Origin: Oscillospiraceae bacterium
GTDB taxonomy: Bacteria; Bacillota; Clostridia; Oscillospirales; CAG-382
NCBI GenBank assembly: GCA_015063785.1
Contig: SVTM01000003.1
Span: 7,285-71,284 of the forward strand
Length of the DNA: 64,000 nucleotides
Reading direction: 5' to 3'
Shown here: piece after piece, positions 24,217-56,788 of the stretch
Position numbering within the stretch: position 1 is the stretch's first letter
Layout: each line of letters opens with the position of its first letter
Position numbers and translations under genes: made by a program
The notes under the pieces: generated by a model
Database searches by the model: none
What the model was told of the DNA's origin: nothing
Seen by the model: the letters and a program-made list of their open reading frames with translations, nothing else

Positions 24217-25218
24217 TTATTCTGCCAAAAGAGTGCTTACGGGATATGCATTGGTATATGCTCTGTAAATACCGTTCACCACTTCAATTCGGACGTATTT
24301 GCAATCGGGATGGATAGAAAAGCTTGCATGATCCTCGCCTCTGACCAGCGAAGCGCGTCTGTGACCGGTGACAAGACGGATGATGTCGCATTTTTCTTTG
24401 GTTTCAATGTGGATCTTGCCGTCCTCGACGTAAAGAGAAGTGATCTCGGGGCCTGTGGAGCAATAGAAATTGCCCTTGTCAAAGGCGTCGATTATAGCTT
24501 CGTGGGTGAGTTTTTCGGCGCAGAACATGGTAAATCCGCCGCACATATCATGGGGACCGTGGTTGTCGTCGGTGGCAACGCACTTTATCATCTTGCCCTC
24601 GCGGAGAAAATCGTCATAAACGTGACCGCAATGCTCGTCCCAGCCTCCAACAAAACAACCGTGGTTGTAAACCTCAAGGTTGTCGATCTCGGTATATCTT
24701 ATGTACTTGGGATAATTCTCGACAGACCAGCAAGGGTGGTTGTATGTGACAATAAAGTTTTTGTCACGCAAAATCTTGAGACAAGCGTTAATATTTTCTG
24801 CAGAATAATCGCCTCTGTTAAAAGCTTCTCCGTCGGGACGCATGAGGGCACGCTTGTCCTCGTCCACCGACCAGCGCATCTTGGGAACGCGGTAGTCTAC
24901 GTCAAGACCGGGCTGGGTAAAATTTTCGCGGTCTCTCGGATAGGCACAGAAATGGGCGGTCTCGCAGTCAGCATAGTCATTGCCGTGGGGACGGTTGAAA
25001 TCCACCTCAAAGCCCGTTATGGTAAGAAACTCTTCGTCGTCAAGCTCGTAATGGCTGAAAAGTCCGTTGTGGTCTGTGAAAGAAATGACAGAATAGCCGT
25101 TGTCCTTATAAATCTTCTTCATTTCCTCGGGCGAAACATATCCGTCTGACCAACTGGTGTGGCTATGGAGATTTGCTTTATAAAAATTACAATTTTCAGG
25201 CAACAAAAATTTTTTCAT
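24217..25218 (-). CDS. PHP-domain metal-dependent phosphoesterase
   Basis: 333-aa ORF. N-terminal ANLHSHTSWSDG and later FTDHN and NHP motifs fit the PHP family. Confidence 0.8.
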   Translation of the reverse strand: MKKFLLPENCNFYKANLHSHTSWSDGYVSPEEMKKIYKDNGYSVISFTDHNGLFSHYELDDEEFLTITGFEVDFNRPHGNDYADCETAHFCAYPRDRENFTQPGLDVDYRVPKMRWSVDEDKRALMRPDGEAFNRGDYSAENINACLKILRDKNFIVTYNHPCWSVENYPKYIRYTEIDNLEVYNHGCFVGGWDEHCGHVYDDFLREGKMIKCVATDDNHGPHDMCGGFTMFCAEKLTHEAIIDAFDKGNFYCSTGPEITSLYVEDGKIHIETKEKCDIIRLVTGHRRASLVRGEDHASFSIHPDCKYVRIEVVNGIYRAYTNAYPVSTLLAE

Positions 25219-25368
25219 TTTTCTACCTCCTAAGGAAATTTGTCTTCCTTTTATAGATATATTTAGATTATATTACCATTCCAAATCCTTGTCAACATCT
25301 TTTTCTGTCAAATAAAAGCCAAAAATATAAAACAAATGTGAATTTTTAAAAAAATATCGACTTTTTAC

Positions 25369-25397
25369 TTGACAAATGCCGTTTTGGATGATATAAT
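25369..25397 (+). promoter_or_regulatory. consensus sigma-70 promoter of the ilvE operon
   Basis: TTGACA (25369-25374), 17-nt spacer, TATAAT (25392-25397); both hexamers are perfect consensus. Confidence 0.7.
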
Positions 25398-25429
25398 AAT
25401 CGACATAATTAAGCAAGGAGATTCCAAAA

Positions 25430-25546
25430 ATGATGGCATCAGCAACCGGTTTCGGCATAATTTGCAACGGTCTTATTATCGCTATTATTATTGCATACGG
25501 AGTGATTATTTCCAGCAATACTCATAGCGCTATTTGTCGTGCATAA
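25430..25546 (+). CDS. putative Ile-rich leader peptide (38 aa)
   Basis: The ORF is below the track cutoff: MMASATGFGIICNGLIIAIIIAYGVIISSNTHSAICRA, with 10 of 38 codons Ile. AAGGAG RBS at 25415-25420 with a 9-nt spacer. It sits between the consensus promoter and the terminator hairpin upstream of ilvE. Confidence 0.5.
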   Translation: MMASATGFGIICNGLIIAIIIAYGVIISSNTHSAICRA

Positions 25547-25599
25547 AACCGAAAAAGTTACTTGTGTCTGTCCCTTGCGGATAAAAAGTAATTTTTAAG

Positions 25600-25634
25600 G
25601 CTTGCGGCATTTAGCTGCAAGCTTTTTATTATTT
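25600..25634 (+). terminator. leader (attenuator) terminator upstream of ilvE
   Basis: Stem GCTTGCGGC / GCTGCAAGC (one G-U pair) with loop ATTTA, followed by TTTTTATTATTT. It ends 15 nt before the ilvE ATG. Confidence 0.6.
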
Positions 25635-25648
25635 CGGAGGAAAAAAGA

Positions 25649-26719
25649 ATGATCGATATCAGAATCGAAAAAACAACTACCCCCAAGGCAAAACCCGCCG
25701 ACGAAACGAAGCTCGGCTTTGGCAAAACTTTTACCGATCACATGTTTGTGATGAACTACACAGAGGGACAGGGCTGGCATGATGCCCGCATCGTTCCCTA
25801 CGGCCCCATCAGCCTTGATCCTTCCGCAATGGTATTCCATTACGGTCAGGAAATGTTCGAAGGTCTCAAAGCTTACCGTGGCAAGGACGGCAAGGCTCGT
25901 CTTTTCCGCCCCGACATGAACGCAAAGAGAGCTAACGATTCCAACCAGCGTCTTTGCATTCCTCAGATCCCCGAAGACGTATTCGTAGACGCCATCAAGG
26001 CTCTCGTTAAGGTCGACGAGGATTGGATCCCCACTGCAGAGGGTACATCTCTTTACATCCGTCCCTTCGTTATTGCAACCGACGAGTTCCTCGGCGTTGC
26101 TCCCTCCAAGACATACCTCTTCATCATCATTCTTGCTCCCAGCGGAGCATACTATGCTTCGGGTCTTGCACCTGTTGGCATCTGGATCGAAGATGAATAT
26201 GTAAGAGCTGTAAAGGGCGGCATGGGCTTTGCAAAGACAGGCGGCAACTACGCCGCAAGCCTTATTGCACAGGTAAAAGCTCACGACGACGGATATTCTC
26301 AGGTTCTCTGGCTTGACGGTGTTGAAAGAAAGTACATCGAAGAAGTCGGCGCCATGAACATCTTCTTCAAGATCGACGGCAAGATCGTAACTCCCATGCT
26401 CAACGGCAGCATTCTTCCCGGTATCACCAGAAACTCGGTTATCAATCTCTGCAAGTCCTGGGGACTTGAGGTTGAGGAAAGAAGAATCTCTGTTGACGAA
26501 CTCATCGAAGCTCAGAAGAACGGCAAGCTCGAGGAAGTTTTCGGCACAGGTACTGCTGCTGTTATCTCGCCCGTTGGCAAACTCCGTTACAAGGACGAGG
26601 TTATGACCATCGGAGACGGCGGCATCGGCAAGACCAGCCAGAAGATCTACGACACAGTCACAGGCATTCAGTGGGGAACAGTTGAAGACCCCTTCGGATG
26701 GTCGGTGGTCGTTGAATGA
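25649..26719 (+). CDS. ilvE: branched-chain amino acid aminotransferase
   Basis: 356-aa ORF. FGKTFTDHMF, YGQEMFEGLKAYR and the class IV aminotransferase pattern GGNYAASL...EEVGAMNIFF. Confidence 0.9.
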   Translation: MIDIRIEKTTTPKAKPADETKLGFGKTFTDHMFVMNYTEGQGWHDARIVPYGPISLDPSAMVFHYGQEMFEGLKAYRGKDGKARLFRPDMNAKRANDSNQRLCIPQIPEDVFVDAIKALVKVDEDWIPTAEGTSLYIRPFVIATDEFLGVAPSKTYLFIIILAPSGAYYASGLAPVGIWIEDEYVRAVKGGMGFAKTGGNYAASLIAQVKAHDDGYSQVLWLDGVERKYIEEVGAMNIFFKIDGKIVTPMLNGSILPGITRNSVINLCKSWGLEVEERRISVDELIEAQKNGKLEEVFGTGTAAVISPVGKLRYKDEVMTIGDGGIGKTSQKIYDTVTGIQWGTVEDPFGWSVVVE

Positions 26720-27390
26720 GCGCAAAAAGAATAACTATATTCGCAGGCCATTACGGCAGCGGAAAAACAAACGTTGCCGTAAACTACGCTCTGCTTCTTT
26801 CAAAGGAAGGAAAGAAGGTATCTCTCTCCGACCTTGATATTGTAAACCCCTATTTCAGATCAAAGGACAGCGAAAAGATCCTTGATGATGCAGGCATCCG
26901 ATTTATATCATCGGAATATGCAAATTCCAACGTCGATATGCCTGCTCTTCCTGCCGACGCCTATTCGGTGACGGCCGACAAGGAAAGATTTGCCGTGGTC
27001 GATGTGGGAGGGGATGACAGAGGTGCTCTTGCTCTTGGCAGATACGTTCCCGACATCGTTGCCGAAAACGACTACGAAATGCTTTTTGTCATCAACAAAT
27101 TCAGACCTCTGACCCGTGATGCAAAAAGCGCGGTCGAGGTGATGCGAGAGATCGAAGAAGCGGCAAAAATGCGCTTTACCGCCATCGTCAACAACTCGAA
27201 CATCGGCGAGCTGACAAAAGCCGAAGACGTGCTTTCTTCTGTTTCGTACGCCAACGAGGTGGCACAGATAACAGGACTTCCCATCAAAATGACAAGCGTT
27301 CATTTTGATCTTGAAAAAGAACTTTCGGGAAAGATCAAAAATCTTTTTCCCATAAAGCTCTACATCCGCCAGACCTGGAAGGCGGAATAA
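26716..27390 (+). CDS. P-loop NTPase of unknown function (MinD/ParA/CooC-like SIMIBI pattern)
   Basis: 224-aa ORF. Walker A-like GHYGSGKT and Walker B-like AVVDVGGDD. The ATG overlaps the ilvE stop (ATGA). Confidence 0.7.
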   Translation: MSAKRITIFAGHYGSGKTNVAVNYALLLSKEGKKVSLSDLDIVNPYFRSKDSEKILDDAGIRFISSEYANSNVDMPALPADAYSVTADKERFAVVDVGGDDRGALALGRYVPDIVAENDYEMLFVINKFRPLTRDAKSAVEVMREIEEAAKMRFTAIVNNSNIGELTKAEDVLSSVSYANEVAQITGLPIKMTSVHFDLEKELSGKIKNLFPIKLYIRQTWKAE

Positions 27391-27432: not shown

Positions 27433-27636
27433 ATGGCAAAAGTTACATTTGACGAAAACCTTTGTAAAGGCTGCGGTCTTTGCGTTGGCGCTTGTCCCAA
27501 GAAAATTGTGAAGCTTAAGACCTCTCTCAACGCCAAGGGTTATCACCCTGCGACAGTTGAAGATCAGGCATCCTGCATCGGCTGTGCTTTCTGCGCAACC
27601 ATGTGTCCCGACTGTGTTATCACCGTCGAAAAGTAA
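27433..27636 (+). CDS. 2-oxoacid:ferredoxin oxidoreductase delta subunit (2x[4Fe-4S] ferredoxin)
   Basis: 67 aa with two cluster motifs, CKGCGLCVGACP and CIGCAFCATMCP. Confidence 0.85.
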   Translation: MAKVTFDENLCKGCGLCVGACPKKIVKLKTSLNAKGYHPATVEDQASCIGCAFCATMCPDCVITVEK

Positions 27637-27653
27637 TATGGGAGGAAAAAGAA

Positions 27654-28721
27654 ATGTCAGATAAAGTCTTGATGAAGGGCAACGAAGCCCTTGCAGAAGC
27701 CGCTATCATGGCAGGTTGCCGTCACTATTTCGGCTACCCCATCACACCTCAGACAGAGGTTGCGGCATATATGTCCAAAAGAATGCCCAAGATCGACGGC
27801 GTGTTCCTTCAGGCAGAAAGCGAAATCGCCGCCATCAATATGGTCATCGGCGTTGCCGCCACAGGCAAGCGCGTTATGACCTCCTCGTCGTCCCCCGGAA
27901 TCTCGCTTAAGAGCGAAGGTATCTCCTACCTTGCAGGCTGCGATCTTCCCGCTCTTATCGTAAACGTTCAGCGCGGAGGCCCCGGTCTTGGCGGTATCCA
28001 GCCTTCTCAGGCTGATTATTCCCAGGCAACAAGAGGTGCAGGTCATGGCGACTTCCATCTTCTCGTTTTTGCTCCTGCATCGGTTCAGGAAATGGTAAAC
28101 CTCACTTTCAAGGCATTTGACCTTGCAGAAAAATACAGAATGCCTGCAATGATCCTCTCTGACGGCACCATGGGTCAGATGATGGAACCCGTAAGCCTCG
28201 AACAGGGCGAGATCAACGAGCACGACAAGTCCTGGGCACTCACCGGCACAAAGTGCGAAAGAAAGCCCAATATCGTAAACTCCCTTTGTCTCCAGCCCGA
28301 AGCTCTCGAAAAGCTCAACATCGAACGCTACGAGAGATACAAGATGGTTGAAGCTAACGAAGCTATGTACGAAGAATACCGCATGGAAGATGCAGAAGTT
28401 TGCATCGTTGCTTTCGGTGTTGCTGCACGCGTTTCCCAGAACGCCATCGACAAGGCAAGAGAACAGGGAATCAAGGTCGGTATGATCCGTCCCATCACCC
28501 TTTGGCCCTTCCCCAAAAAAGCTCTTCTTGACGCTGCCGACAAGGTAAAGGCGTTCGTTTCTGTCGAGCTTTCCATGGGTCAGATGATCGAGGACATCGA
28601 ACTTGCAACACGTTGCAAGAAGCCTGTGCTTCTCTGCTCGAGAGTGGGCGGTATGATCCATACCACAGACGACGTTCTCTCCAAAATCAAGGAAGCCAAC
28701 GAAATCGGAGGTGCTAACTGA
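27654..28721 (+). CDS. 2-oxoacid:ferredoxin oxidoreductase alpha subunit (Kor/Vor type)
   Basis: MSDKVLMKGNEALAEAAIMAGCRHYFGYPITPQTE is the typical KorA/VorA N-terminus. Start set at ATG 27654 (GGGAGG RBS). Confidence 0.85.
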   Translation: MSDKVLMKGNEALAEAAIMAGCRHYFGYPITPQTEVAAYMSKRMPKIDGVFLQAESEIAAINMVIGVAATGKRVMTSSSSPGISLKSEGISYLAGCDLPALIVNVQRGGPGLGGIQPSQADYSQATRGAGHGDFHLLVFAPASVQEMVNLTFKAFDLAEKYRMPAMILSDGTMGQMMEPVSLEQGEINEHDKSWALTGTKCERKPNIVNSLCLQPEALEKLNIERYERYKMVEANEAMYEEYRMEDAEVCIVAFGVAARVSQNAIDKAREQGIKVGMIRPITLWPFPKKALLDAADKVKAFVSVELSMGQMIEDIELATRCKKPVLLCSRVGGMIHTTDDVLSKIKEANEIGGAN

Positions 28722-29479
28722 TGGCTACTGTATTTTCAAAACCCCAGGCGCTGACAGATGCGCCTCTGCACTACTGCCCCGGATGTACACACGGTATCAT
28801 CCACAGACTCGTGGCAGAAGCTATTGACGAACTCGGCATCCGTGGCAGAACCATCGGTGTTGCCTCTGTCGGATGCTCGGTTCTCACATACAACTACTTC
28901 AACTGCGACATGGTTCAGGCGGCTCACGGCCGTGCTCCCGCTGTTGCAACCGGCGTAAAAAGATCCGATCCCGTAAACAACATCGTATTCACCTATCAGG
29001 GTGACGGCGACCTTGCTGCTATCGGTACCGCAGAAACAGTTCACTCTGCAGCACGCGGCGAAAACATCACCGTTATCTTCGTAAACAACGCGATCTACGG
29101 TATGACAGGCGGTCAGATGGCCCCCACAACTCTTCCCGGTCAGATCACACAGACTTCTCCCTACGGACGCGACACAAAGACCGTTGGTTTCCCCATCAAG
29201 GTCTGTGAAATGCTCTCGCAGGTTGACGGCGCCACATATCTCGAAAGAGTTGCCGTAAACAACGTAAAGAACATCCGCGCCGCAAAGGCCGCCATCAAGA
29301 AGGCTTTCCAGAATCAGGTTGAAGGCAAGGGCTTCTCTCTTGTTGAAGTTCTTTCCACCTGCCCTACAAACTGGGGTCTTACACCTGACAAGGCTCTCAC
29401 ATGGCTTGAAGAAAACATGCTTCCTTACTATCCTCTCGGAGTATATAAGGATAAATATGCTGAAAGTGAGGTAAAGTAA
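28721..29479 (+). CDS. 2-oxoacid:ferredoxin oxidoreductase beta subunit (TPP-binding)
   Basis: 252 aa. Contains YCPGCTHG and TPP motif YQGDGDLAAIG...NNAIYGMTGGQ. The start overlaps the alpha-subunit stop. Confidence 0.85.
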   Translation: MATVFSKPQALTDAPLHYCPGCTHGIIHRLVAEAIDELGIRGRTIGVASVGCSVLTYNYFNCDMVQAAHGRAPAVATGVKRSDPVNNIVFTYQGDGDLAAIGTAETVHSAARGENITVIFVNNAIYGMTGGQMAPTTLPGQITQTSPYGRDTKTVGFPIKVCEMLSQVDGATYLERVAVNNVKNIRAAKAAIKKAFQNQVEGKGFSLVEVLSTCPTNWGLTPDKALTWLEENMLPYYPLGVYKDKYAESEVK

Positions 29480-29480
29480 G

Positions 29481-30020
29481 ATGGCAACAACACAGATACT
29501 TTTTGCAGGCTTCGGCGGACAGGGCATCCTTTTCTCGGGAAAATTCCTTGCATACGAAGGACTTCTTGAAGAAAGAGAAGTCAGCTGGCTTCCTTCCTAC
29601 GGTCCTGAAATGCGTGGAGGCACCGCAAGCTGTAGTGTTATCCTTTCTGACACAAAGATCGGTTCTCCCATCGTAAACGATCCTGATTGTCTTGTCGCCA
29701 TGAATCTTCCCTCCCTTGACAAGTACGAAAGCACAACTGTTTCGGGTGGCAAGATCTTTGTTGACAGCTCGCTTATCGGCAGAAAGGTCGAAAGATCAGA
29801 CGTTGAGGCATATTACATTCCTGCCACAGCTCTTGCTTCTGACAACGGACTTACAGGCCTTGCAAACATGATCATGGTCGGCTATCTCATCAAGAAGACG
29901 GGCATCATTCCCTTCGAAAACATCGACCGTGCTCTTGCAAAGGTCGTACCCGCAAGAAAACAGGATATGCTCGGCGCCAACAGACGCGCGCTGGAACTCG
30001 GCTATAACTACGCCGAATAA
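29481..30020 (+). CDS. 2-oxoacid:ferredoxin oxidoreductase gamma subunit
   Basis: 179 aa. [17 protein letters not shown]...[11 protein letters not shown] is the typical gamma-subunit pattern. Confidence 0.85.
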
Positions 30021-30070: not shown

Positions 30071-30622
30071 ATGAACGATCAGCTCAAAGACATTGGTATG
30101 CGCATTGCGTGCATACGAGAAGATTGCGATATGACAGATGTTGAGCTTGCCGAAAAACTCGGCGTTGACATTGAAACCTATCGCTCATATGAAAAAGGCG
30201 AAATTGACTTTTCATTCAGTTTCGTATATAACGTTGCCGAAAAACTCGGCGTGGATGTGCTGGATATTATTAGCGGCACGTCTCCCACTCTTTCTACCTG
30301 CTGCGTAGTAAAGAAAGGCAAGGGCTTTTCTGTCACCCGTGACGACGGATACGACTACAAGCACCTTGCATATACCTTTAAAAACAAGAAATCCGAGCCC
30401 TTCCTCGTAACTGTGAACCCCGACGACAAAACTCCAGTGCTTCACAGCCACGAGGGTCAGGAATTCAACTATCTCCTTTCGGGAAAGCTGACTTTCTATA
30501 TCGGCGATATTTCATACGAGATCGAACCCGGCGACAGTGTATACTTTGATTCAGGCGTGTCCCATGCTCTTAAAGTGACAGGTGACGAGCCTGCACAGTT
30601 TATTGCCGTCGTTGTAAAATAA
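30071..30622 (+). CDS. XRE-family HTH regulator with C-terminal cupin domain
   Basis: 183 aa. The N-terminal HTH_3 pattern (IREDCDMTDVELAEKLGVDIETYRSYEKGE) is followed by a cupin-like HSHEGQEFNYLLSGKL...GDSVYFDSGVSH. Confidence 0.8.
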   Translation: MNDQLKDIGMRIACIREDCDMTDVELAEKLGVDIETYRSYEKGEIDFSFSFVYNVAEKLGVDVLDIISGTSPTLSTCCVVKKGKGFSVTRDDGYDYKHLAYTFKNKKSEPFLVTVNPDDKTPVLHSHEGQEFNYLLSGKLTFYIGDISYEIEPGDSVYFDSGVSHALKVTGDEPAQFIAVVVK

Positions 30623-30654: not shown

Positions 30655-32355
30655 ATGCCAATATATGAAAGATTTGTTGGCGCCCACAGAGACGATTTTC
30701 TTTCCCTCAAGGACGCTCAGAAAAACTACAAGCTCACATGGAGCGAAGATTTTAACTTTGCCTATGACGTCATGGACGTTCTCGGCACTGAAAAGCCCGA
30801 CAAGCTCGCTATGGTCTGGGTTTCAAAGGATGGCGAAGAGATAAAGTTCACTTTTGAAGACATGATGAAGATGTCCAACAAGGTTGCAAACTATCTCCGT
30901 TATCTGGGTGTGAAAAAGGGCGACCGCGTTCTTCTTGTCATGAAGCGCAGCCACTATTTCTGGCACACTGTTCTTGCTCTTCACAAGATCGGTGCCGTTA
31001 TGGTTCAGGCAACCTTTATGCTCACCCCCAAGGAATACGTTTATCGCTGCAACAAGGCAGGTATCAAATATGCCATCTTTACAGGTGACGGAAACTGCAC
31101 AGATCAGTTTGACGAACGCCAGGACGAATACGAAACAGTGCTTCGCAAGATGGTTCTTGGCCACAAAAAAGCCGACGGTTGGCTCGACTTTGAAGAAGGC
31201 GTCGCAAACGCTTCCGACGAGTGGGTTCGACCCACGGGCAAAGATGCCATCTATGCCAACGACACATCTATCCTCGGTTTTACTTCCGGTACAAACGGAT
31301 ATCCCAAGATGGTGCTTCACGATTTCCGCTACCCTCTCGGTCACATCATGACAGGCGTTTTCTGGCACAGAGTTGTGGACGGAGGTCTTCATTTCACCAT
31401 TTCCGATACAGGCTGGCTCAAATCGCTTTGGGGCAAAATGTACGGTCAGTGGTTCGGTGAATCGGCGGTTCTTGTCTATGACTTTGACAAATTCGACGCC
31501 GTAGACATTCTTGAAAAGCTCGAAAAATACCGCGTAACTACCTTCTGCGTACCTCCCACGATGTACCGTCTGCTTTTGCAGCAGAATGTGAAAGATTACG
31601 ATCTTTCGGCTTTGACTCATTGCTGTACTGCCGGTGAGGCGCTTAGCCCCGAGATATTCAACAATTGGAAAGAAGCCACAGGTCTTGAGCTTTATGAGGG
31701 CTTCGGTCAGACCGAAACCACCCTTTGTATCGCCACCATCTACCCTTGGACAAAGCCTGTCCCGGGCGCCATGGGACTTCCTGTACCGGGCTTTGATGTA
31801 CATATCCTTGATGAAGAGGGCGAAAATGCTGCTCACGGCTCAAACGGCGAGATCTGTATCAGAACATTGAGCACCGACCGTCATCCCTGTGGACTTATGC
31901 GCTCGTACAACGCAAACCCCGAGGACACTGAGCGTGCCATCTATCGCGGATACTACCACACAGGCGACGTGGCTTACCGCGATGAATTCGGACTTTTCCG
32001 CTATGTGGGCAGAAATGACGACGTTATCAAGTCGTCAGGCTATCGAATCAGCCCGTTTGAGATCGAAAGCGTTATGCTTGAGCATCCCGCGGTATTCGAA
32101 GTTGCGGTAACGGGCGTGCCCGATCCCGTGCGTGGATTTGCCGTCAAGGCAACCGTTGCTCTCAAGGACGGATACGTCGGCTCTGATGAGCTTACAAAAG
32201 AGCTTCAGACCTACGTCAAAAAGAACACCGCTCCCTACAAATACCCTCGTGTTATCGAATACGTTGCAGCTCTTCCCAAAACCTTCAACGGAAAGATCCG
32301 TCGTGTTGAGATCAGAAACAACGACAAGCAGAAATACGACGAGAATAATAAATAA
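30655..32355 (+). CDS. AMP-forming acyl-CoA synthetase (medium/branched short-chain ACSM/MacS-like)
   Basis: 566 aa. AMP-binding motif GFTSGTNGYPK and later YHTGD and GYRISPFEIES motifs. The N-terminal FNFAYDVMDVLG is typical of the ACSM-like subgroup. Confidence 0.85.
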   Translation: MPIYERFVGAHRDDFLSLKDAQKNYKLTWSEDFNFAYDVMDVLGTEKPDKLAMVWVSKDGEEIKFTFEDMMKMSNKVANYLRYLGVKKGDRVLLVMKRSHYFWHTVLALHKIGAVMVQATFMLTPKEYVYRCNKAGIKYAIFTGDGNCTDQFDERQDEYETVLRKMVLGHKKADGWLDFEEGVANASDEWVRPTGKDAIYANDTSILGFTSGTNGYPKMVLHDFRYPLGHIMTGVFWHRVVDGGLHFTISDTGWLKSLWGKMYGQWFGESAVLVYDFDKFDAVDILEKLEKYRVTTFCVPPTMYRLLLQQNVKDYDLSALTHCCTAGEALSPEIFNNWKEATGLELYEGFGQTETTLCIATIYPWTKPVPGAMGLPVPGFDVHILDEEGENAAHGSNGEICIRTLSTDRHPCGLMRSYNANPEDTERAIYRGYYHTGDVAYRDEFGLFRYVGRNDDVIKSSGYRISPFEIESVMLEHPAVFEVAVTGVPDPVRGFAVKATVALKDGYVGSDELTKELQTYVKKNTAPYKYPRVIEYVAALPKTFNGKIRRVEIRNNDKQKYDENNK

Positions 32356-32360
32356 CATAA

Positions 32361-32394
32361 AAAGATCCGTCCCCAACGGGACGGATCTTTTTTC
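32361..32394. terminator. bidirectional intrinsic terminator ending the ilvE-acs operon
   Basis: 13-bp stem AAAGATCCGTCCC / GGGACGGATCTTT with loop CAAC, followed by a T-run. Confidence 0.85.
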
Positions 32395-56691: not shown

Positions 56692-56788
56692 GACAGAGTA
56701 GGTCGCCGTGCGTGAAGTGCCGGGGGAACGGGGAGTTGTCCTTCGGACGAAAAGAATTCTTGCGGTACGGTTTCCGCATCCCGCTGTC
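56692..56788 (+). promoter_or_regulatory. THF (tetrahydrofolate, folT-motif) riboswitch
   Basis: GACAGAGTAG...GCGTGAAGTG...GAACGGGGAGTTGTC...ACGAA...CCGCATCCCGCTGTC. It shares the conserved blocks AGAGUAG, GCGU-AAGUG, GAA-GGGA-GU-GUC, ACGAA and GCAUCC-GCU with the crystallised Eubacterium siraeum THF aptamer. A closing P1 helix GACAG/CTGTC is present, and it lies upstream of a folT-like gene. Confidence 0.8.

Follow-up and report, generated by a model that had tools for sequence, protein, structure and literature searches.

A probable isoleucine-specific leader-peptide attenuator ahead of ilvE in an Oscillospirales bacterium

What decides whether RNA polymerase enters ilvE, when a terminator lies immediately in front of this gene and a short reading frame crowded with isoleucine codons lies in front of the terminator? 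The question is raised by a 64,000-nucleotide stretch of DNA, hereafter the window, from an Oscillospiraceae bacterium (GenBank assembly GCA_015063785.1, contig SVTM01000003.1, positions 7,285 to 71,284 of the forward strand), where positions 25369 to 25648 form the leader of ilvE, coding for a branched-chain amino-acid aminotransferase. An earlier note, made from the letters of this DNA, had proposed there an isoleucine-specific, ribosome-mediated attenuator gating the ilvE operon. Computational analysis lends support to this proposal, through a conserved open reading frame (ORF) rich in Ile, a predicted antiterminator and the exclusion of known Rfam leaders. We hold it highly probable that the leader is a functional Ile-responsive leader-peptide transcription attenuator, sensing charged tRNA-Ile. 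A somewhat lower confidence goes to the specific antiterminator put forward below, a pairing of the tail of the ORF with the 5' arm of the terminator.

The leader and its competing RNA folds

The window is not alone in carrying this leader. Eighty orthologues of ilvE were fetched (79-92% identity, all belonging to uncultured Oscillospirales of the gut or the rumen that bear the labels Acutalibacteraceae, Oscillospiraceae or Ruminococcus), and an Ile-run ORF followed by a terminator stood 5' of ilvE in only three of the 80 loci. Exact-motif scans, using patterns of 21 nucleotides (nt) for the tail and 23 nt for the terminator, extended the set to nine species-level genomes: the window and eight others with a homologous leader directly 5' of ilvE (L081, L082, L083, L084, L085, L086, L324 and L325). 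These nine close leaders, together with a divergent tenth, L005, are the sequences compared throughout. In the window the leader is built from the following elements.

25369..25397, plus strand: sigma-70-type promoter, TTGACA at 25369-25374, a 17-nt spacer and TATAAT at 25392-25397, matching the consensus at 12 of 12 positions
25415..25420, plus strand: Shine-Dalgarno (SD) sequence AAGGAG of the leader ORF, 9 nt 5' of the ATG at 25430
25430..25546, plus strand: leader ORF of 38 codons taken from the ORF list, MMASATGFGIICNGLIIAIIIAYGVIISSNTHSAICRA, with stop codon UAA at 25544-25546
25457-62, 25475-80, 25484-92, 25505-10 and 25532-34, plus strand: Ile codons 10-11, 16-17, 19-21, 26-27 and 35 of the leader ORF, from its translation
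25450..25455, plus strand: 5' strand of helix P0, UUUCGG, codons 7-9, pairing with 25549-25554; part of a candidate anti-antiterminator
25480..25529, plus strand: internal ORF hairpin P2/P3 (CGCUAU...AUUGC / GCAAU...AUAGCG), found in the RNAalifold consensus, in the pairs of individual sequences and in the minimum free energy (MFE) fold of the window
25529..25541, plus strand: 5' strand of the predicted antiterminator, GCUAUUUGUCGUG, codons 34-37 (A-I-C-R) with the last base of codon 33
25549..25554, plus strand: 3' strand of P0, CCGAAA, beginning 3 nt past the stop codon and overlapping the 5' base of hairpin A
25553..25596, plus strand: hairpin A, an AT-rich spacer hairpin enclosed by the antiterminator helix and compatible with terminator and antiterminator alike
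25597..25634, plus strand: intrinsic terminator, a 12-base-pair (bp) stem 25597-25608/25614-25625, a 5-nt loop 25609-25613 and a U-run 25623-25634
25603-25615, plus strand: 3' strand of the predicted antiterminator, that is, the terminator 5' arm and loop in a second role

The perfect-consensus promoter and the AAGGAG site are present as the earlier note had described them, and a consensus scan finds besides a TG at 25389-25390, making this an extended -10 promoter; the leader transcript would start at about 25403-25405. TTGACA-17-TGnTATAAT recurs in eight of the nine close homologues (the -10 of L324 is TAAAAT; L005 has TTGACA-17-TATACT), and a GGAG-type motif lies 7-10 nt 5' of the leader ATG in all homologues. 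A second promoter with 12 of 12 consensus positions, TTGACA-17-TATAAT at 25295-25267 on the minus strand, is divergent from the leader promoter at a distance of 74 nt, and presumably drives the divergent PHP-domain gene at 25218-24217.

Reading and translating the sequence confirms the ORF of 38 codons with ten Ile, one Leu and one Val. Its Ile tally ranks first among the 312 small ORFs of the window that begin with ATG (20-60 amino acids), and its Ile share is 26%, against 6.7% in the proteins of the long ORFs. Both strands of the window and of all related ilvE loci (about 0.7 Mb) were also scanned for ORFs with Ile runs that have a terminator behind them, and nothing emerged apart from these leaders and their antisense shadow. 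Eight of the ten Ile codons of the leader are ATT, while ATC makes up 102 of 132 (77%) in seven genes of the operon. Classical attenuators use less-favoured codons, and the ATT bias is in line with this habit; a constraint from AT-rich pairing could also explain it.

The folding of the RNA exceeds chance as well, 25500-25640 folding better than shuffled sequence (z = -4.1). The hairpin of 9 bp with a T-run, ending 15 nt before the ATG of ilvE, was correctly seen in the earlier note; these 9 bp are the G+C-rich core of a full stem of 12 bp (25597-25625), with a free energy of -17.7 kcal/mol taken alone. In each of the nine sequences the stem pairs to 100%, and it includes one compensatory change, from G-C to A-U in L082, for which L083, L324 and L325 display the G-U intermediates.

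A structure excluding the terminator was sought by folding, and one exists. The ORF tail GCUAUUUGUCGUG (25529-41) is complementary to UUGCGGCAUUUAGC (25602-25615), the terminator 5' arm plus its loop, and the resulting helix, 25529-41 with 25603-15, comprises 4 bp, a 2x2 internal loop and 7 bp, hence 11 bp in total. It is pairable in 100% of the nine close homologues and, when the terminator 3' arm is withheld in silico, it becomes the MFE structure in all nine sequences and in L005 as well. Antiterminator and terminator are predicted to be comparable in stability, with segment energies in the window of -30.2 and -38.0 kcal/mol, respectively. What little variation the close homologues show favours the antiterminator, a U-G pair having become U-A in L082. 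A substitution in the terminator loop, CATTTAGC to CATATAGC (position 25611 of the window), occurs in two separate lineages, L083 and L327-L330. This independent U-to-A change turns a U.U mismatch of the antiterminator into a U-A pair and is neutral for the terminator.

Two other pairings had been put forward as competitors of the terminator. The AT-rich hairpin is real (hairpin A, 25553-25596), but it coexists with the terminator in every fold; because the antiterminator helix encloses it, it is a spacer and not a competitor. Hairpin A is predicted in all nine homologues with variable inner sequence and length, its outer stem being changed in L082, L083 and L085, and L005 has an analogous spacer hairpin of 7-8 bp. 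The duplicated CTTGCGG segment is likewise present, at 25574-25580 and 25601-25607, but it is absent from the relatives and was rejected as an antiterminator.

Finally, the ORF folds on itself. Four helices, P0 (UUUCGG/CCGAAA), P1 (GCA/UGC), P2 (CGCUAU/AUAGCG) and P3 (AUUGC/GCAAU), pair its 5' half with its tail and are, tentatively, a candidate anti-antiterminator. The P0 duplex is predicted in all nine sequences, with a compensatory change from CGG:CCG to CAAC:GUUG in L082 and L083. The 5' arm of the P2/P3 hairpin is the AIIIA codon run itself, which makes this hairpin a candidate for a 1:2-type or pause hairpin.

Ribosome position and the proposed switch

The choice between the two folds depends, in silico, on where a ribosome stands. 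This was explored by a stall scan: partition functions were computed on the nine sequences for transcripts ending before the terminator 3' arm, with a ribosome footprint of 30 nt. Once the A site has entered roughly the last nine codons or the stop, the probability of the antiterminator is 0 in every one of the nine. An A site placed over the first Ile pair gives about 0.5-1.0, with seven of the leaders reaching at least 0.8. For the Ile runs further along, the outcome hinges on whether the RNA behind the stalled ribosome can pair again with the tail, and this matters because the ORF folds on itself through P0-P3. With further ribosomes queued upstream, almost all Ile codons through codon 27 give about 0.9, the III run of L083 (0.1) being the exception. 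In the same queued-ribosome scan the probability has dropped to 0.2 or less by two to three codons past the last upstream Ile pair, L082 still showing 0.5 at the third and fourth codons.

We infer from this a switch that would work as follows, the stalling, the kinetic control and the response to Ile in vivo all being part of the proposal. A very strong promoter would start transcription, and a ribosome would load on the leader ORF of 38 codons. When Ile is plentiful, the ribosome would reach the UAA at 25544-25546, where its footprint would mask the tail (25529-25541). With the tail masked, the terminator 5' arm (25597-25608) would be free to pair with 25614-25625, and the polymerase would stop at the U-run, before ilvE. 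When charged tRNA-Ile is scarce, the ribosome would come to a halt on one of nine Ile codons, those from codon 10 to codon 27, its front edge remaining 5' of 25529. The stalled ribosome, and any queued behind it, would open P0-P3, which otherwise tie the 5' half of the ORF to its tail. The tail thus freed would pair with 25603-25615 as soon as this segment is transcribed, forming the 11-bp antiterminator closed by hairpin A; the terminator would be blocked and the polymerase would continue into ilvE and the rest of the operon.

Homologous leaders and rival explanations

The small ORF and its Ile bias are both conserved in the orthologous leaders that were examined. The ten leaders share one layout: promoter, SD and ATG, ORF, spacer hairpin, terminator with U-run, GGAGG or a near variant, then ilvE. 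The ORF has 34-38 codons in the close set and 30 in L005. The nine close peptides contain 9-12 Ile (26-32%), 0-2 Leu and 1-2 Val; that of L005 has 20% Ile, 2 Leu, 3 Val and a run of IIII. The SD, the ATG, the reading frame and the position of the stop are conserved across leaders, and the indels within the ORF are of 3, 3 and 6 nt, keeping the frame, while those past the stop are of arbitrary length. A few near-identical metagenomic contigs also carry leader variants. A search with the leader peptide returned only one near-identical cluster, and scans of genomes with a 17-nt pattern from the Ile runs and of metagenomes with a 16-nt tail pattern gave chance matches, with no new leader among the matches listed.

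The pattern of conservation within the ORF is telling. Over its first third the peptide varies freely (MMASATGFG, MNRFVSLFN, MLGMATFFG) while the Ile runs persist, and the AIIIA run and the SAICRA tail are invariant in the nine genomes. None of the nine genomes differs from the others at the third codon positions of S33-R37, even though their ilvE genes share only 77-93% DNA identity; in the adjacent ilvE, third positions are invariant in 14% of the columns with an invariant amino acid and in 4% of the fourfold sites. That the synonymous sites of the tail are frozen speaks for a constraint at the level of RNA. In L005 neither strand of the proximal antiterminator helix matches that of the close set (CGC:GCG in place of GCUA:UAGC), the distal helix is almost unchanged (GUCGCG:UGCGGC), and the stop codon of the leader falls within the antiterminator strand.

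The leader occurs solely at loci in which ilvE comes first behind a promoter. Relatives without it have ilvE at a later place in its operon, following either an AMP-binding gene, at a gap of 20-30 nt, or the genes of a 2-oxoacid:ferredoxin oxidoreductase (VOR). At least three arrangements of the ilvE/VOR cluster coexist among close relatives (for example L015, L018 and L024 versus L033 and L049): ilvE first, AMP-binding gene-ilvE-VOR, and VOR-ilvE. In some other relatives a small frame beginning MRQARFSNTK precedes ilvE; it is the out-of-frame 3' end of an AMP-binding gene abutting ilvE, and was discarded as a leader.

A number of points weigh against the attenuator as we propose it. The predicted probability of the antiterminator in the absence of any ribosome varies from 0.00 to 0.90 among homologues, so that the anti-antiterminator role of P0 and P1 is tentative. 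Folding with ribosome masks, a check suggested at the outset, does give a position-dependent result as long as the terminator 3' arm has not been made; on the full leader, though, the terminator is the MFE structure under every mask. As the terminator is always the thermodynamic optimum there, the switch would have to be kinetic, as in classical attenuators. Unless ribosomes are queued, the antiterminator becomes improbable in several homologues when the stall is at the III or VII runs. Codon 35, the tenth for Ile, sits within the antiterminator strand, and a stall at that place would favour termination. Covariation among relatives, also called for early on, is found for the terminator pair and for P0 but not for the antiterminator, both strands of which are invariant in the nine close homologues. 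Support for it rests on this invariance and on a single divergent leader, L005, hence the lower confidence that we place in this specific helix. The family is small, effectively three or four clades, and the peptide is hydrophobic enough for a membrane peptide.

Could the ORF, then, code for a stable small hydrophobic peptide of the membrane, such as a micro-protein or a peptide akin to type-I toxins, with the hairpin as its own terminator or as a leaky insulator and the Ile residues as those of a transmembrane helix? The peptide has a hydrophobic core of about 20 residues, it is conserved as a reading frame, and the gene callers of public collections called it in a few contigs. Yet its hydrophobicity is due almost solely to Ile (0-2 Leu and 1-2 Val in the nine), although I, L, V and F are as a rule interchangeable in transmembrane segments, and L325 has an Asp in the middle of the core. 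That the N-terminal half diverges while the tail is frozen at synonymous sites speaks for selection on RNA and not on protein; the frozen tail is exactly complementary to the terminator 5' arm; and the element always lies directly 5' of ilvE, in the same orientation, behind a promoter that has no other target. We give a membrane peptide a slim chance. An equally slim one goes to the idea that the leader is indeed coupled to translation while reporting general translation capacity, or any slowing of ribosomes, in place of isoleucine. The stall scan leaves room for it, for the antiterminator is blocked only once the ribosome reaches the last nine codons or so, and any stall upstream would lead to read-through. 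Against it, the runs of Ile codons (II, II, III, II; IIII in L005) are the sole upstream feature kept in all ten leaders while the residues between them vary, the first regulated gene makes Ile, and the non-preferred ATT codons are used.

A different family of explanations would make the ORF incidental, with a factor acting in trans on the leader. The factor might be uncharged tRNA, as for T-boxes, or a small molecule; it might also be a protein, for instance a repressor of the CodY type or an antiterminator that binds RNA. T-box and CodY are the usual controls of ilv genes in Firmicutes (PMC5794164), and there is something resembling a CodY box 5' of the -35 element:

25337..25356, plus strand: AT-rich near-palindrome TGTGAATTTTTAAAAAAAT, just 5' of the -35 and kept in six of nine homologous leaders

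It is possibly an UP element, or else a weak box of the CodY type, and its belonging to the system is uncertain. In a search for the CodY box (AATTTTCWGAAAATT), 25341-25355 matches with 3 mismatches, and such matches occur at chance level in the window (8 observed versus 5.8 expected). Lying upstream of the promoter, a CodY-like site could moreover only add a second layer of control, not replace the attenuator. As to RNA sensors, the earlier note had seen no T-box core, and Rfam agrees: there is no T-box above gathering score in the whole window, and no T-box nor anything significant in 25200-25700 with E values up to 10. The best leader match is Thr_leader, with 15.4 bits for a gathering score of 55 (E = 2.9), and no relevant Rfam leader reaches gathering level in 20 related loci. 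The only Rfam match of the window at gathering level is a tetrahydrofolate (THF) riboswitch aptamer at 56692-56788 on the plus strand, with 86 bits for a gathering score of 36. Conservation of SD, ATG, frame and stop position, with in-frame indels, sits no better with an incidental ORF, and we regard a factor in trans as very improbable. There remains chance. Ile codons and intergenic DNA are both AT-rich, so that an ORF of this kind and a terminator-like hairpin might simply have come together, and the window does contain another Ile-rich ORF, MFLTKIAIVLYNIAIYNIIIIH (23317-23249, minus strand), with 22 codons of which 8 are Ile, IIII included, ending a few nt 5' of the GTG (23243) of an ORF of 261 amino acids. 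This one has no terminator behind it and is thus probably a by-product of AT-rich intergenic DNA. The leader of ilvE is another matter: ten species-level genomes keep the whole arrangement 5' of ilvE, the scan of about 0.7 Mb showed nothing comparable at other places, and the tail is conserved at synonymous sites. These comparative data effectively refute coincidence.

The regulated operon and known attenuators

What would such an attenuator control? Behind the leader, the following genes and the probable end of the operon are found.

25636..26719, plus strand: ilvE with its SD (GGAGG at 25636-40) and ATG at 25649, branched-chain amino-acid aminotransferase (Pfam Aminotran_4 and NCBIfam PRK13357/ilvE_II, above cut-off)
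26716-27390, plus strand: ParA/MinD/NUBPL-like P-loop NTPase, overlapping ilvE by 4 nt, without a match to an NCBIfam model
27433-27636, plus strand: Fer4 delta subunit, 2x[4Fe-4S], of a 2-oxoacid:ferredoxin oxidoreductase
27651-28721, plus strand: VorB-type alpha subunit, 537 bits with the VorB model for a cut-off of 399
28721-29479, plus strand: beta subunit of the 2-oxoacid:ferredoxin oxidoreductase, by family match
29481-30020, plus strand: gamma subunit of the 2-oxoacid:ferredoxin oxidoreductase, by family match
30071-30622, plus strand: HTH-cupin regulator, by family match
30655-32355, plus strand: MbcS-like AMP-forming acyl-CoA synthetase, for which MbcS is the best model, with 408 bits, below the cut-off of 850
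32359..32392, no strand assigned: 15-bp palindromic terminator, probable end of the operon

The product of ilvE, the first regulated gene, matches an NCBIfam equivalog well above cut-off. There is no strong terminator between ilvE and the palindrome at 32359-32392, and the operon would accordingly extend from ilvE through the acyl-CoA synthetase (to 32355). Most of the 80 loci keep ilvE, the NTPase and VOR linked, whichever of the two gene orders they have, and the operon genes behind ilvE recur in the loci of the homologous leaders. The P-loop NTPase gene accompanies the VOR genes in most related loci, again in either order; that its product delivers an Fe-S cluster to VOR is a guess.

Enzymes of the VOR/PorA type are catabolic in some gut bacteria, taking BCAA (branched-chain amino acids) to branched fatty acids. 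It is also classic physiology that rumen anaerobes make BCAA from branched volatile fatty acids, and MbcS is the 2-methylbutyrate/isobutyrate-CoA ligase of S. aureus. An attenuator that is on when charged tRNA-Ile is scarce, combined with a ligase that consumes ATP to activate an acid, argues for the anabolic direction. The operon may thus make isoleucine from 2-methylbutyrate: the acid would be activated to 2-methylbutyryl-CoA, which reductive carboxylation would convert to 2-keto-3-methylvalerate, to be transaminated to Ile. A broader scenario can be built on this, and we offer it as speculation, giving it somewhat less than an even chance. The Ile-only attenuator would be of recent origin, within a narrow Oscillospirales clade of gut and rumen, and would have appeared together with the operon rearrangement that put ilvE first. 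Its polarity would mark the cluster of ilvE, NTPase, VOR δαβγ and MbcS-like synthetase as a dedicated Ile route from exogenous 2-methylbutyrate by reductive carboxylation, and hence as the genetic basis of the requirement of fibre-degrading anaerobes for branched-chain volatile fatty acids, rather than as a set of genes for BCAA fermentation.

The mechanism is a known one; the host lineage (Clostridia/Oscillospirales) and the target pathway are unusual. With its specificity for one amino acid, a four-strand switch that is fully specified and ten natural variants, the leader is an unusually clean example of its kind. It would serve well as a test case for predicting attenuators of uncultured gut anaerobes, and might also be used as a genetic part that responds to Ile. 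The polarity of its regulation suggests a testable annotation, namely that the widespread cluster of ilvE, oxidoreductase and short-chain acyl-CoA synthetase is anabolic, leading from branched-chain fatty acid (BCFA) to isoleucine, and this bears on the isoacid nutrition of ruminants and on the exchange of BCFA and BCAA in gut communities.

How does this leader compare with those already described? Leader-peptide attenuation is a textbook mechanism in Proteobacteria and is sporadic in Firmicutes (S. aureus ilvD, L. lactis, the his leaders of Bacillus). Our literature searches brought up no account of it for Clostridia/Oscillospirales or for ilvE-VOR operons, and none of an Ile leader preceding ilvE or VOR in Clostridia. 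Classical attenuation is that of the ilvGMEDA (ilvL), trp, leu, his, thr and phe leaders of E. coli and Salmonella. The present leader shares with them the four-segment logic, with regulatory codons in segment 1, a segment 2 masked by the ribosome at the stop, and a 2:3 antiterminator opposed to a 3:4 terminator followed by a U-run; in ilvGMEDA, moreover, ilvE is also among the regulated genes. However, ilvL is multivalent, with Ile, Leu and Val, and the present leader is confined to Ile; unlike ilvL and its kin it has an unrelated sequence, a spacer hairpin A between segments 2 and 3, an ORF that folds on itself through P0-P3, and an anaerobic host among the Clostridia.

The Ile- and Leu-specific T-box leaders of ilv genes in Bacillus and Clostridium sense uncharged tRNA directly, through a specifier loop and the T-box sequence. 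They have the same position 5' of a BCAA gene, the same output of terminator versus antiterminator and a tRNA-charging signal as here. By contrast, they have no translated ORF, and their specifier loop and T-box features were not found in this leader with Rfam. Replacement of T-boxes by leader peptides has a precedent in Firmicutes, for his genes (Naville and Gautheret, PMC2965389). Other leaders of Gram-positive bacteria, those of Lactococcus lactis leu-ilv and the ilvB upstream-ORF leaders of Streptococcus and Corynebacterium, have been predicted or partly tested (PMC5794164, PMC10272879). Like the present one they are leader-peptide attenuators for BCAA genes, but with other peptides, structures and target operons, and Rfam models reveal no homology.

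The closest likeness is the attenuator of ilvD, in the ilv-leu operon of S. aureus, where leader-peptide attenuation is experimentally supported and the T-box alternative has been excluded (Kaiser et al. 2018, PMC5794164). There too the host is a Firmicute, a short ORF (26 amino acids) led by an SD contains three tandem Ile codons, an alternative antiterminator fold precedes an operon of BCAA biosynthesis, and the terminator lies 52 nt from the leader stop (PMC5794164), compared with 50 nt here. The two leaders have no sequence homology. In S. aureus the peptide is rich in Leu and responds mainly to Leu, and the poly-U tail is what its antiterminator has been proposed to capture (PMC5794164). 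In the present leader, Ile is practically the sole regulatory residue, and the antiterminator would capture the terminator 5' arm and loop. The regulated genes differ accordingly, ilvDBNC-leuABCD-ilvA in S. aureus, and ilvE, VOR and an acyl-CoA synthetase in the present case.

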